Positions 27,001 through 33,000 of a stretch of 57,221 nt of DNA are shown here, one piece after another (within the stretch, counting starts at the first letter, position 1; each line of letters begins with the position of its first letter). Origin of the DNA: Escherichia phage vB_EcoP_phi296. The stretch lies in sequence record PV189400.1; one strand, given 5' to 3'. Made by a program: the position numbers.

Positions 27001-30000
27001 AGAGTTTGTTGAGGATGGAGGTAAAACCGGCTGGTTTAACATGGGTGACCTTGAAGGCCAGCAGAAGGAAATGGATCGCCTTGTATCGCTGGCGAAGGGG
27101 GGATGGAAAGGCCAGAGTATCGGTGCATGGAATTCGTTCCTGAACCTTGTGGAGGATGCCAACGGTGCGGTTGAAAACGCACTGCGTCTTTCTGCCTATA
27201 AGCACGCCCGTGATGCCGGTTTGTCACGCCAGCAGGCGGCGTCTCTTGCCAAAAACATGACGGTGAACTTTAACCGTCGTGGTGAGCAGGGGGCGCTGAT
27301 GAACTCGCTGTACATGTTCGCTAACGCCAGCATTCAGGGGACGGCAAACCTTGTGAGAACCCTTGGGCACCTTAATGGTGACGGTCCGTTACTGGAGCGC
27401 CTTCGCTGGAAGAATCTGAATGTACCTCAGAAAATCGCGCTTGCTGCTGTGGGAGCGGGTTATCTGCTTGGCTCGCTTAATCGGAGTGTGGCGGGTGAGG
27501 ATGATGACGGGGTTAACTGGTATGACAAGGTGCCTGATCATGTGAAAGAGCGCAACCTCGTTATTATGAAATCGATGTTCGGGGGCAAAGCCGGTGAGTA
27601 CTGGAGTATTCCTCTGCCTTACGGGTACAACGTTTTCTTCCTGCTCGGGCATACCGCTGAAGGTGTGGCGGCGGGTGACCTGACGGCGTCCCGTGCTGCC
27701 GGTAATGTTGTTGGTGGTGTGCTTGGTGCATTCAGCCCGATTGGCAGTGAGACGTCGGAAACACTGTCCGGGGCATTGCTGAAAAATGCAGCGCCGACCA
27801 TTCTGCGTCCGTTTGCGAACCTTGCCATGAATGAAAACTTCATGGGGGCGCAGATTTACCAGGAGAACATGCCGTTTGGTACACCAAAACCTGACAGCCA
27901 GCTGGGAAGACGTTCAACGCCAGAAGCGTACAAGGCGTTTGCATCCTGGCTGAATGCGTTCTCAGGTGGCAGCCAGTACCGTTCAGGCGCGGTGGATATC
28001 ACACCGGAATCGCTGAAATACTGGGTGGACTATATCTCTGGTGGTACAGGTCGCTTCATTTCCAAAACCACGGATGCGGCGGTGAAATCGCTGAATGGTA
28101 TTGATATACCGGAGCAGCAGGTGCCTTTCCTGGGGAAAATTTCGGGAGAGGTGATGCCGTATGCTGACCAGCAGAAGATGTATGACCGGATGACGGAGGT
28201 TGTGCAGTACCACGCAGAGCTGAAGAGCCTGAGGGGTTCCGAAAGAACGGCATTCATTGACGAGAACAACGGAAAATTGTCGATGAACGGGCTTATGCAG
28301 GATACCCGGAAGAGACTGAAGGATTTGCGTAAACAGCGTGATGCCATTTATGCCGACAGTACTCTCAGTCTGGCGCAACAGTCGGCGATGGTGAAATCGG
28401 TTGAGCGGGATATGAAGATTGCCGTGGATCGGTTTAACCGCGAGTACAACAAAAAAGTGGGGGTGGAGTAAGAGAAATTGCCCCGTACTGAAGTGCGGGG
28501 CATTCTTAACATAATGTGTACATAAGTGAGTACTGTTGTGATGGATGTTTTGGTATTTAATGCATTTAAATCAATGGATTGATATTTATGTTCATTATAT
28601 CCATTTAACTAAGAGGACATTGTTGCGTATTGATTTTGGTTGTTCACCATATGACTGATAATACCGTCTTTATGGTTTTAAAATCAAGGTGTAAGTTTGT
28701 TTTTGTTCATGGTTGATTATCTTCTTTTGCGTTGAAAAGTGTTTTGTTCACTTGCTAATGCGTACATATTGAGTACAGAATACATTATAAACTTGTGTAC
28801 AGGATATAAAGCATTGGCACTGAGCGACACCAAACTACGAGGCCTCTACGGAAAACCCTACTCTGGCCCTGCTGAAATCACCGATGGTGACGGGTTAAGT
28901 GTGCGGATTACTCCAGCAGGAACTATCACGTTTCAGTACCGTTATCGCTGGAATGGTAAGCCAGTACGTCTTACTGTCGGGCGCTATCCGTCTACTTCAC
29001 TGAAGGACGCGCGTGTTATCGTCGGTGAGATGCGCGCATTGTACATGAAGGGAGTTAACCCTAAAAATTATTTTGCGCCCAGTGACGGCGAACTGACATT
29101 AAAAGAATGCCTGGATCAGTGGTGGGATAAGTATGTTACTGATCTGAAACCCAATACACAGACGCTTTACAGATCCGTCGTGTACAACACTATGTACACA
29201 CAGTTTGAAGGCTCGCCAGTTGCCAGTATCCCAGTATCGGCATGGGCTCGTTTCTTTGACAAACAAGAAAGCCTCAACAAGAAAAAGGCTCGTGTTTTGT
29301 TGTTACAACTGCGTTCAGTTATTAACTGGTGTATCAGCCGCCAGTTAATCCCATCATGCGAATTACTCAAGCTTAGTGTTAAGAATATTGGGAAAAAACC
29401 AGATGTAGGGAGTCGTGTACTTACCTATACGGAACTGGCAAAAATTTGGCTGGCGCTGGAGAACTCAAAAGTAGTTACTTCCAACAAGGTGTTACATCAA
29501 TTGCTATTGCTATGGGGGGCCAGACTTTCTGAGCTACGTCTCGCGACAGCCAGTGAGTTCAACATGGAAGATTTGGTCTGGACAACCCCAAAAGAGCATT
29601 CAAAAATGGGGAATATTATCCGGCGTCCGGTATTCACTCAGGTTAAACCTTATATCGAGAGATTGCTTAATGCGGGTTTTGATGTGCTATTCCCCGGGCA
29701 GGAAATAGATAAACCTATTGATCGTTCGTCGGCTAATTTGTACATGAAAAAGTTAAGGGAGAAAATTGATATTCCTGAATGGAGAACGCATGATTTTAGG
29801 CGTTCTCTGGTAACGAATTTATCTGGGGAAGGAATTATGCCCCACGTCACTGAAAAAATGCTGGGGCATGAACTTGGGGGAGTTATGGCCGTGTATAATA
29901 AACACGACTGGTTGTCGGAACAGAAAGATGCGTATGAGTTGTATGCTGATAAAATTTTCTGGCACGCTAAACAGCTCGGTTAATTCCTCCGGCTTTAAGC

Positions 30001-33000
30001 CATTGTTCAACGGCCTGACGACTATATCGCGCCGGATGAGTAAGTACTGGTTCCGGGAATCCGTGTTTTTTTCGCAAATTATACAAAGCTGTGCGCCTTT
30101 TTTGTAACAAATCAGAAACCTCTTTTTCGGTCATTAAGTTGACTTCCATAGTATGCGCTCCTTTTCTACATGTATTTCAACAGCCTGATATCATCCACGC
30201 CCTAAAGGACGTGGATTCCCGCTACGTTCACTCTGACAATTCGTTGATCAAGTCACGGTATTTATTCAGTTCTTGCAACGCCTTACATGCACCCTCCCAT
30301 CGTTTCTGTTTCCGCCCGGCGCGGCGCGCTTCTTTCCGTGATTTACGTAGCAGGTCACCTATAATGTTGTTCTGCACTGGCTGAACTGGTTGAACTGGTT
30401 GAACTGAATCAATATCTGTTTTGCTTCCAACTCCCTCTACTGCCTGCCAGATGCCGTTTTTTACCTTTACGATCCCCTGGTTTTTCAACTTCCACAGCGT
30501 ATCAATGACGTCATTCAAATCAATATTGAGACCTTTAGAAATGCTGTCGGCTGTTGCTTTTCCTAATTTGTTCAATTCTGTGAGTACGGCGTTCATTTTT
30601 TTCTCCTGATATTTTAATGTCGGTGGGGGTGTTATGCGATTGGTGAGGTGTCAGCTTCTTCTACCAGCTTTTCCAGTTCATCCAGCTTTCGGGAAAGAAT
30701 TTCACCAAACAGATGAAGTTCTGTATCTGCTGTGATCGGGATCGGAACAAAGCGTATTCCACTTCTGGCAAGTTGATTTGCGATTTCCAGGCACTGCCTT
30801 AATTCAACTGGTGATGCCTTTTGTCAACGTCGTTTTTTCGCTCATTGGTTTTCTCCAGAAATTTAACAATACCCGGAACCATCTCAATGGATGGTGTTCC
30901 GCATTGGTTACCCCAGACATCAAATCCATGCGAGGTGTGACGGGCGAACAGTTCTATCCGGGGAACATCGCCAAGAAGTTGCACAAGTTTTTCTCGCGCC
31001 ATATCCGGCTTGCGGGAGTGATCAAGGCGCGGTGCAGTGAATGACTGGATTATTCCGGCGTTAATGCGTTCAGGCAGATTTCCTTTCACTGCAAAAAGGC
31101 AGTCTTCGCTGTTAGCGCGAGTGGTGCTACCCATACCCATGACCAGCTTGTCGGTCTGTCTTTTCCCGCATTTGTTCCAGGTTAATCCTTTCATCGTCAC
31201 CAGACGAAAGCCCCACGCTTCTACAACCTTCAATGCTTCAAGTGGTTGTGTAGGCACCCACCACATAGCCAACAGGCAATTATCGGCTGCCAGTTCCCAT
31301 ACCGGGAGGCGGCAGATATCCAGAAGACTCATGACCGGATATTTAAAACTTGCACCGCGTTGACCATCGGTTGCTTTGTCTCGGAATGTCCAGGGGGATC
31401 TGCGTAAATGAGAGTGTATTTTTTCGTCATAGCGCGTTTTCAAACTCATCAATGTAAAGTGCAACAAGTGCAACGCATCGTCTGAAATCGGCTGCGTCAT
31501 GTGGAGCACCGAAGCTATGACCATAGATATTCTTTTTCAGTCCACATGCGATTGAGGCAAGAGTTGCGCTACTGATGCCAACATAGTCAGTCGATTGCCA
31601 TTTCAAAACCTTCATAGCCAAATCTGACATTTCTTGTCTCCAATAAAAAACCGCCATCAGGCGGCTTGGTGTTCTTTCAGTTCTTCAATTCGAATATTGG
31701 TTACTTCTGCATGTGCTATCTGCGCCCATATCATCCAGTGGTCATAGCAGTCATTGATATTCTCCGCTTCGATAACTCTGTTGAATGGTTCTCCATTCCA
31801 TTCACCTGTGAATTTGAATTTCATTAAGTTTCACCTGTAAAAAAAGGAGCCGAAGCTCCTTTGATATTAAAATTCGAATTGTCTCGCCCGAAGGCTTTTT
31901 AACATTGGTCTTGCCCGTTCGAAAATGGCGCTTGTCTGGTCAATTCGTGTTGCCTCCCTGAGCAATGCGTCTCTGTTTTTCGTCACCGTGTAGAAAGTCT
32001 CAAACGCGATGTCATACAGCTTGCTCGCGTATGATGAGTTCAGTTCCTTCAATATCGGATACAGGCGTTTGCTGATGTCCTGTGCTTTCTCCATCTGTAC
32101 CTGCATGTAGCAGAGGAGGATGATTTCCTCGTCTGTGAATTGCTGTGCTGGTTGCATGCTGCGAAGTTTCTTTTCGCACTCGATGAAGTATCGGCGTATC
32201 TGGCGGCCTTTTTCGTTACGCTCAACCATCGCCAGTTCTTTGGCTGTGTCGAGAGTTAGGTGGTAGTCCTTGCTACGGCGATCACCTCCTCGCCCTTTGG
32301 TTTGCCCATTTTGGCAAATCAAAATATAGTCCTGGCTTTCAACGAATCCATATTCAGCAATGCGTTCTTTAACCCAGTGCGCGAACATTCTGCCCACACC
32401 AAGAAAAGAGTGTAGATCACGAGCGTTAACTAGAAGAATTGTTTCGTTGTCGATAGTGCCGTTGAATACGGGGATGAGTTGACTGGTCATGATGACCTCC
32501 TTTGAAGTTTTAGTTAGCAATCACCAGTTAGTGGCTGGTGATCGGGTGTCAACTAGAGCCTTCAAAGATGCTCCGGGCATATTCCCCTTGCGGGTATTGT
32601 ATTACGCCTCTCCACCCGACCTTTGTACGGATGTGACTATGCCAAATTGCAGGCATAAAAAAGCCGCAAAGCTATCGGGTGCGGATGACCGCTTTGAAGT
32701 TCTAGTGCGGTCAGTATGCGATAGCTCTGGCGGATTTGTCAAATCATGTAGGCCTTATCTTGCTGTAAGCCGCGCCATTCGGGCTTTTCCCCAGATTTGG
32801 GGGAAACTATCTGCGAAGTATTCACCTTTAACGGCAAGTTGCAGGTTAGCCACGACCTTCCTCCTTTGGCTTGTGAATTTGTATCGTCATGTCGCTTTGA
32901 GTGGTGACTACAATGATAGAACCAGGCTGAAGGCTGTTAAGATTGAATGCTTCGTAAAACGAATCCAAGGCCAGCGCTTTTTTATTCTTTCGGTTCCACC

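Follow-up and report, generated by a model that had tools for sequence, protein, structure and literature searches.

Introduction

In phage lambda, int and xis lie on the same strand and are co-transcribed from pL and pI, with sib retroregulation and a requirement for integration host factor (IHF). A different arrangement has been described in the Shiga toxin (Stx) phage Phi24B (vB_EcoP_24B, HM208303), in which int is inverted relative to lambda and 933W (PMC3064807). Here we consider the region at 28472-30149 of Escherichia phage vB_EcoP_phi296 (PV189400.1), which carries an integrase gene (int), an excisionase gene (xis) and a phage attachment site (attP), analysed within a stretch of 57,221 nucleotides that is referred to below as the window.

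The Phi24B system has been characterised experimentally. Transcription of its int gene starts 46 bp inside the predicted 1245-bp open reading frame (ORF), as mapped by 5' rapid amplification of cDNA ends (5'-RACE); the 1245-bp ORF was not expressible, and a TTG start permitted protein expression (PMC3064807). Over-expression of CI leaves int mRNA unreduced, int mRNA increases with prophage copy number (2.6-fold in double and 7.5-fold in triple lysogens), and attP plasmids are integrated by uninduced lysogens, that is, Int is active in them (PMC3064807). RNA-seq found int expression unchanged upon induction (PMC4651098). The small ORF beside the 3' end of int is the excisionase: Int alone gives integration and no excision, and Int together with Xis gives excision (PMC3064807). 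Integration uses a 24-bp core, a minimal attP of between 350 and 427 bp and a minimal attB of between 62 and 93 bp, and does not need IHF (PMC7581858). Experiments on Phi24B have also shown the use of secondary sites and multiple lysogeny. The Int-binding sequences in attP were described as still unknown by Mohaisen 2020 (PMC7581858).

Identity of the recombination module

The window very probably belongs to an Stx2 phage in which 28472-30149 constitutes a site-specific recombination module (int-xis-attP) of the Phi24B type. Over 28300-30700 the sequence shows 100% identity with Stx2-converting phage 86 (AB255436) and with vB_EcoP_phi419, where it lies at the same coordinates, and it is matched by 241 phage records. 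On the plus strand, int (28814..29983) encodes a P4-like tyrosine integrase of 389 aa with a TTG start codon, identical to Phi24B Int at 379 of 389 positions (97.4%), with Arm-DNA-bind_3 (62.6 bits) and Phage_integrase (63.4 bits) domains in Pfam and matches to integrase families in PHROG. On the minus strand, xis (29967..30149) encodes a 60-aa winged-helix/HTH_17 (putatively AlpA/TorI-like) excisionase, identical to Phi24B Xis at 56 of 60 positions (93%). A scan of Int and Xis against NCBIfam gave sub-threshold matches only. The two genes run tail to tail on opposite strands, as opposed to a lambda-type same-strand int-xis operon, and overlap by exactly 17 bp (29967..29983), both stop codons included, in agreement with the overlap of about 17 bp between a rightward int and a convergent leftward xis proposed in an earlier note made from the sequence of this DNA alone. 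That note also connected an inverted int of Phi24B-type phages with multiple lysogeny. Both points are confirmed, the first by direct comparison with the Phi24B int locus (HM208303), which has the same gene order, strands and 17-bp overlap, and the second by Fogg et al. 2011 (PMC3064807). The inverted arrangement is thus already known, and Fogg et al. name phage 86 itself. No evidence contradicting the Phi24B-type identification was found. Our own analysis covers orthology, gene geometry, the mapping of att sites and comparative conservation, and the experiments on the promoter, CI independence, Int and Xis activities and minimal att sites are those of others on Phi24B.

Attachment sites and argW

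The attP core lies at 28595..28619, 25 bp identical to attB that are the complement of nt 1-24 of the argW tRNA-Arg(CCU) gene plus one upstream base. The window (28595-28618), Phi24B, K-12 attB and both attL and attR all contain the published 24-bp core TTATATCCATTTAACTAAGAGGAC. A probe spanning 28380-28830 was intact in none of 5,426 complete E. coli genomes, and in every match the break fell at 28592-28622, separating an attR part from an attL part. Prophage records likewise start at window position 28592-28595, and the annotation of VT2phi_272 places attL at the equivalent of 28595-28619, overlapping tRNA-Arg(CCU). The left junction is composed of attB-left, core and attP-right (60/60 and 100/100) and the right junction of attP-left, core and attB-right (59/60 and 98/100), so that attL and attR of lysogens are near-perfect recombinants of the window attP with K-12 attB. 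The attachment site is therefore 5' of int, inside the interval where the earlier note had placed it, and not elsewhere. Since the junctions reconstruct there, the 'primary site upstream of intS' of Phi24B corresponds to the 5' (acceptor/D-arm) part of argW. The same locus is named argW in the Stx-phage literature; neither argW nor a tRNA is mentioned in PMC3064807 or PMC7581858, nor discussed in the lysogen RNA-seq paper (PMC4651098).

The integration core is thus the 5' end of argW (nt 1-24, acceptor strand and D-arm) and not the usual 3' part of a tRNA gene, and the prophage therefore cuts the tRNA off from its native promoter. In lysogen junctions the complete tRNA gene has phage DNA upstream, and the native argW promoter (TTACCC-17-TATACT) is left behind at attR, directed into the terminal part of the phage structural gene. 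The tRNA is on the strand opposite to int, with its 5' end 195 bp upstream of that gene, which is the 'opposite-divergent' (OD) shape. We call this insertion unusual on the basis of two published counts: islands with a 5' tDNA fragment make up 159 of 3919 (4%) Islander islands (PMC4383910), and the SIT and OD shapes together account for less than 8% (Panis et al. 2010, PMC2951348).

The window also carries three phage tRNA genes in a row at 50062-50311, tRNA-Met(CAT), tRNA-Arg(TCG) and tRNA-Arg(TCT). A UCU tRNA reads rare arginine codons of the AGA/AGG type, and the phage tRNA-Arg(TCT) could buffer a change in argW (CCU) expression caused by integration.

Distribution across Enterobacterales

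Searching species-representative genomes with Int yielded 33 loci. Twenty of the 33 (Int 67-91% identical) have a complete tRNA-Arg(CCU) on the strand opposite to int, with 189-197 bp from the tRNA 5' end to the int start (172-174 bp in two of them, L023 and L041). Among the genera represented are Erwinia, Enterobacter, Pantoea, Brenneria, Xenorhabdus, Providencia, Tatumella, Salmonella, Morganella, Proteus and Rouxiella. In most intact loci an AlpA-like xis is convergent with int and overlaps it by 17, 20 or 23 bp; the overlap is 20 bp in HK140 and in Sf101 and 61 bp in mEp021. As the tail-to-tail overlap is common to these relatives, it is a trait of the whole module family and not of Stx phages. 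Together these comparisons suggest that the clade as a whole, across Enterobacterales, has both the divergent tRNA/int geometry and the int/xis overlap.

Candidate arm-type sites around the core

The motif TGNGTACA occurs 8 times in the window, and 4 of these copies are on the plus strand within 290 bp around the core. With a fifth copy at 28527, which reads TGAGTACT, the repeats form two groups: two TGNGTAC(A/T) copies 12 bp apart on the structural-gene side (28515..28534; 28515-28522 and 28527-28534), and three TGNGTACA copies on the int side (28759..28801; 28759-66, 28770-77 and 28794-801). Their offsets from the core start (-80, -68, +164, +175 and +199) are the same in Phi24B and in Hafnia phage yong2 despite divergence of the DNA that separates the repeats, and the three int-side copies are nearly invariant across 21 elements. 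In a sister clade (HK140, Sf101; Int about 56% identical) the 2+3 layout and the spacings are kept but the motif is TG(T/C)GTACCA(A), and the repeat motif thus changes together with the integrase. These features make the five conserved repeats candidates for Int arm-type sites.

Published deletions of Phi24B attP can be read against these positions. We placed the fragments by primer positions, not by the listed arm lengths. The smallest fragment shown to recombine, attP427 (-216..+210 from the core start, equivalent to 28378..28805 here), contains all five repeats. Fragment attP350 (-171..+178), which fails, cuts the fourth repeat and lacks the fifth; attP237 (-132..+104), which also fails, lacks all three int-side repeats; and in attP140 (-66..+73), a further failure, no repeat is intact. 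These results fit a need for the int-side repeats without proving it. We note that Supplementary Table 1 of PMC7581858 gives attP350 arms of 187 + 139 bp, as against about 171 + 155 bp from the listed primers, and that the attP350 reverse primer is written in forward orientation in Supplementary Tables 1 and 2.

The int-side repeats overlap the spacer, the -10 element and the early transcript (about +8 to +15) of the int promoter, pInt (28752..28787, plus strand), which itself lies inside the minimal functional attP fragment. Because the repeats cover pInt, autoregulation of int of the type known for IntS of KplE1 is possible. Against this, the 2.6- and 7.5-fold higher int mRNA of double and triple Phi24B lysogens is not expected under tight negative autoregulation (PMC3064807). 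The comparison with Phi24B as a whole has two limits: the tail-side arm of attP, between a hairpin at the end of the structural gene and the core, differs in sequence from Phi24B, and the functional statements made here are carried over from Phi24B, with its 97% Int identity, and do not derive from this phage.

A second repeat, TGTTCA(C/T), is present in four plus-strand copies (28589, 28641, 28704 and 28745) within 163 bp (28589-28751), where about 0.05 are expected. The copies at 28641 and 28745 are conserved in relatives, and six similar copies are found in an Erwinia relative (L032). These repeats may be candidate Xis sites or core-type Int sites.

A leftward promoter-like element facing argW

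On the minus strand between the core and int, a promoter-like element (28658..28687) consists of TTGATT, 18 bp and TATTAT, with 39 nt between the end of the -10 and the 5' end of the tRNA. In an alignment of 21 sequences it appears as TTGnnn (28687-28682), 18 bp and TAnnAT (28663-28658): TTG is present in 21/21, TAnnAT in 20/21 and the 18-bp spacer length in 21/21, and in 20/21 the distance from the end of the -10 to tRNA nucleotide 1 is 39 nt. Conservation is poor in the spacer and in the columns around the element. This pattern suggests a promoter that reads into the argW tRNA in the lysogen, and the element is thereby a candidate replacement for the argW promoter. Combined with the arm-type repeats, it leads us to propose, at what we judge to be even chances, that the attP of this integrase clade is a compact divergent-promoter unit for 5'-end insertion, in which the five TGNGTACA repeats (two on the structural-gene side, three on the int side over pInt) serve as Int arm sites and a leftward sigma-70-type promoter takes over argW. 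Neither the arm-repeat nor the argW-promoter point is made in the Phi24B papers examined.

It is also quite possible, though we favour it less, that TTGnnn-18-TAnnAT is an accessory-protein site of the intasome (an IHF-like bend, or a site for Xis or Int) and not a promoter for argW. Arms of attP normally carry such sites, ATCAAG on the plus strand bears some resemblance to the IHF consensus WATCAANNNNTTR, the hexamers agree with that of sigma-70 at only 8-9 of 12 positions, and promoter-like hits in this AT-rich DNA are near chance (7 versus 4.4 +/- 2.2). However, the resemblance to WATCAANNNNTTR is incomplete and varies among relatives, and Phi24B integrates without IHF. An accessory site would also sit less easily with the finding that 20-21 of 21 diverged elements keep an exact 18-bp spacing and a 39-nt distance to the tRNA 5' end while the spacer itself is unconserved. 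Moreover, argW loses its native promoter in the prophage, so that a replacement is needed if the tRNA is made.

The same divergent-promoter logic would hold in the sister clade, in which the 5' end of sbcB is replaced. At the sbcB junction of these phages, the minus strand (1250-1330 in L033, 960-1040 in the HK140 locus L006, and the Sf101 locus L008) encodes MTDTDKQPTFLFHDYETFG..., the first exonuclease I codons being replaced by phage sequence. We take MTDTDKQPTFLFHDYETFG to be the N-terminus of ExoI. Presumably the sister-clade phage also replaces the sbcB promoter. Insertion at sbcB with replacement of its first codons fits a family habit of 5'-end insertion with expression signals supplied by the element.

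The excisionase and the int/xis overlap

The leftward early (pL) operon ends with xis; from N to xis all annotated genes are on the minus strand but one, orf43 (gp43, 32489-33082, plus strand). In the domain scan of Xis, HTH_17 was the sole family above threshold (28.9 bits, cutoff 27). Xis further matched PHROG 66, 'excisionase and transcriptional regulator' (2.5e-7), and weakly a PDB AlpA family regulator (E = 0.68), and no match to Pfam Phage_AlpA was reported at E <= 0.01. In Phi24B, too, the AlpA link of Xis was obtained only with HHpred, TorI being the modelling template (PMC3064807).

By its geometry the 3' overlap must force mutual antisense transcription of int and xis. The earlier note's description of mutually antisense 3' ends is to this extent a fact of sequence, but evidence of a regulatory role was found neither in our analysis nor in the papers examined, where the int/xis overlap and antisense transcription go unmentioned. 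We consider it unlikely, as an addition to the Phi24B-type explanation and not an alternative to it, that the overlap is a regulatory device by which each gene damps the other. In such a scheme, N-antiterminated pL transcription after induction would cross xis into int antisense, pInt transcription in the lysogen would cross xis antisense, and damping would follow from transcriptional interference or from RNase III cleavage of duplex RNA. The two genes indeed leave no space between them, nor is a terminator predicted there, and most intact relatives, to as little as 54% Int identity, retain an overlap of 17, 20 or 23 bp, with 61 bp in mEp021 (34% Int identity). Yet Phi24B int mRNA was unchanged on induction by RNA-seq (PMC4651098), two relatives (L022 and L035) are without the overlap, and no paper or experiment among those examined addresses such a role. 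The overlap may also be mere compaction, as the int stop codon lies inside the conserved GG(V/I)N codons of the Xis C-terminus.

It is very improbable that the 60-aa protein is an AlpA-like transcription regulator only and not a recombination directionality factor (RDF). The generic HTH_17 assignment just above its cutoff and the weak AlpA match in the PDB would allow this reading, but the 93%-identical Phi24B protein, together with Int, turned attL/attR plasmids back into attB/attP (PMC3064807), and throughout the clade the ORF keeps its position and overlaps int.

Other features occur near xis. A perfect 7-bp inverted repeat (ATCCACG ... CGTGGAT; 30191-30214), with no T-run, lies in the 78-bp gap between a DUF1627 gene and xis, and at the corresponding position in HK140, just 5' of the alpA-like gene, a rho-independent terminator is annotated. 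Inside the DUF1627 gene a 9-bp tandem repeat (ACTGGTTGA x 3.4; 30376-30406) encodes VQP repeats, and VT2phi_272 has one extra copy of ACTGGTTGA, so that copy number varies between otherwise 99.5% identical phages. The plus-strand 197-aa ORF at 32489-33082 (orf43 in phage 86) lies inside the leftward early operon and abuts the antB anti-repressor gene.

The int start codon, its promoter and the preceding hairpin

The ORF containing int is open on the plus strand from 28739 to 29983 (414 aa from a GTG), and the true start is the TTG at 28814, 75 bp further in. In homologues a TTG, GTG or ATG at the equivalent position is followed by A(L/I)SDTKLR, with in-frame stops just 5' of the start in Hafnia phage yong2, HK140, Sf101 and mEp021, and AGGA (28802-28805) lies ahead of the TTG here. 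The first 25 codons of the GTG ORF correspond to the promoter and transcription start. We assign TTGCTA (28752-57) as the -35 and CAGAAT (28776-81) as the -10 of pInt; the start at about 28785-28787 is transferred from the Phi24B 5'-RACE, the promoter region (28699-28824) being identical in the two phages. The -35, the -10 and the position of the start codon are conserved in 21 related elements. A promoter scan gave 7 hits versus 4.4 +/- 2.2 by chance and did not flag pInt, and promoter prediction, a check suggested in the earlier note, was not relied on. As the scan is near chance, the pInt call rests on the published 5'-RACE and on cross-species conservation. Because int starts at 28814, the 5' AT-rich non-coding region that contains pInt is 28472-28813 (342 bp). 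The earlier note was right that this DNA is AT-rich (GC 0.30-0.32 at 28500-28800 versus about 0.52 on either side), but its extent of about 270 bp (28472-28738) was short by the 75 bp. Its proposal that int is uncoupled from the early operon is supported by the gene's own promoter and by the CI-independent int mRNA of Phi24B (PMC3064807).

The region begins at the stop codon of the last gene of the rightward structural block (20081..28471, plus strand; 2796 aa, an LPD5/LPD38 domain protein in the annotation of relatives). Directly 3' of this gene is a GC-rich hairpin (28479..28502; -22.3 kcal/mol, z = -6.9 versus shuffles), conserved in Phi24B and likely to be a transcription stop, with a weak U-tract (UUCUU) on the plus strand. 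A terminator scan of 28300-30700 on both strands found no site after the structural gene, int or xis. Since the tail is only UUCUU and the scan made no call, 'terminator', the term used in the earlier note, is plausible but not canonical: the strong hairpin is present, but it is without a proper T-run. On the minus strand the fold is weaker (-16 kcal/mol), with AAUUUCUCUU following it. At attR (L046), transcription from the native argW promoter enters the phage through the 24-nt tRNA fragment and heads for the end of the 2796-aa gene, and the minus-strand hairpin with AAUUUCUCUU (28465-28510) might stop this antisense transcription.

It is scarcely credible that int is the full 414-aa GTG ORF (28739-29983), without its own promoter and read through the hairpin as the final part of the rightward structural operon: this ORF is open and so annotated in some records, and without a strong T-run at the hairpin Q-modified late transcription could enter int in the circular or replicating form, but the Phi24B transcript starts 46 bp inside an ORF that could not be expressed at its full 1245 bp, relatives begin at the TTG-equivalent codon with in-frame stops upstream, conservation of the 75 bp follows promoter-like blocks and repeats and not codons, and attL separates int from the structural operon in a prophage that nevertheless expresses int.

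Mechanism and significance

It is very likely that int is transcribed rightward and constitutively from pInt. Because pInt lies inside the int-proximal arm of attP, int would be expressed in the prophage regardless of CI. Int alone would recombine attP, at the core 28595-28619, with the 5' end of argW, the tRNA-Arg(CCU) gene, and may do so by binding the five TGNGTACA candidate arm repeats, three of them over pInt, and the leftward phage promoter may re-drive argW after integration. Excision would need Int together with the 60-aa, putatively AlpA/TorI-like Xis. As xis is the last gene of the leftward pL operon, Xis would be made only after CI inactivation, and the direction of recombination would for this reason be set by Xis alone. 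A standing pool of Int in lysogens would help superinfecting genomes to integrate, as the basis of multiple lysogeny. Published work explains repeated lysogeny of one cell by Phi24B-type Stx phages, and the spread of stx, by an Int that is constitutive and independent of CI.

The module itself adds nothing new to this explanation, and the value of the present analysis is modest and lies in its details. These are the candidate Int arm sites, which would explain the published attP deletion results; the recognition of the 'primary site upstream of intS' as the 5' (D-arm) part of argW; the testable prediction of a phage-carried replacement promoter for the argW tRNA; and a divergent tRNA/int geometry and int/xis overlap that appear common to relatives in many genera of Enterobacterales.

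Comparison with known systems

The closest system is that of Phi24B, with int at 236-1405 on the plus strand, xis at 1389-1571 on the minus strand and the 17-bp overlap between them. The DNA is 95% identical over 1612 bp, with the same 24-bp core, the same promoter and 5' untranslated region, and five repeats at identical offsets from the core. The two differ in the remaining DNA divergence of about 5%, in the tail-side attP arm between hairpin and core, which is substantially different, and in the genes to the left of xis, where the window has a DUF1627 gene with an MT-A70 methylase gene directly after it.

The sbcB-integrating lambdoid and P22-like int-alpA modules of HK140, Sf101 and phage 2851 form a sister clade with Int about 56% identical. 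They share the attP-int/xis layout, with a 20-bp 3' overlap and int divergent from the target gene, and 2+3 arm repeats with spacings of 12, then 11 and 24 bp. They differ in the motif, TG(T/C)GTACCA(A) versus TGNGTACA, and in their target, the 5' end of the protein gene sbcB.

The IntS-TorI system of KplE1/CPS-53 (PMC2951348) also uses argW, with int beside attL, a promoter inside the recombination region, no co-transcription of int with the RDF, and an RDF of the TorI/AlpA winged-helix kind, to which Xis of the window may also belong. In contrast to the window phage, which uses the 5' end of argW in the divergent ('OD') arrangement, KplE1 uses the 3' end, with tRNA and int on the same strand ('STI'). 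Negative autoregulation has been shown for KplE1 IntS (PMC2951348), whereas in the window it is a candidate from the sequence. The module shows the geometry of the 'autoregulated' class of Panis 2010, integrase genes with the promoter inside attL, in which int adjoins a tRNA gene, its promoter overlaps the recombination region and the shape is STI or OD, here OD.

Insertion at the 5' end of a target, with the element restoring that end, is also seen in dusA-associated integrases, according to Farrugia 2015 (PMC4482086), and in the 5'-tDNA islands of Islander (PMC4383910). Both are set apart from the window by different integrase families and targets. With lambda, the window shares a heterobivalent tyrosine integrase acting on arm and core sites, a small winged-helix Xis that sets direction and a xis gene at the far end of the pL operon. 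Unlike lambda, it has an inverted int and, on the evidence from Phi24B, a CI-independent promoter of its own for int and a recombination reaction in which IHF is dispensable.

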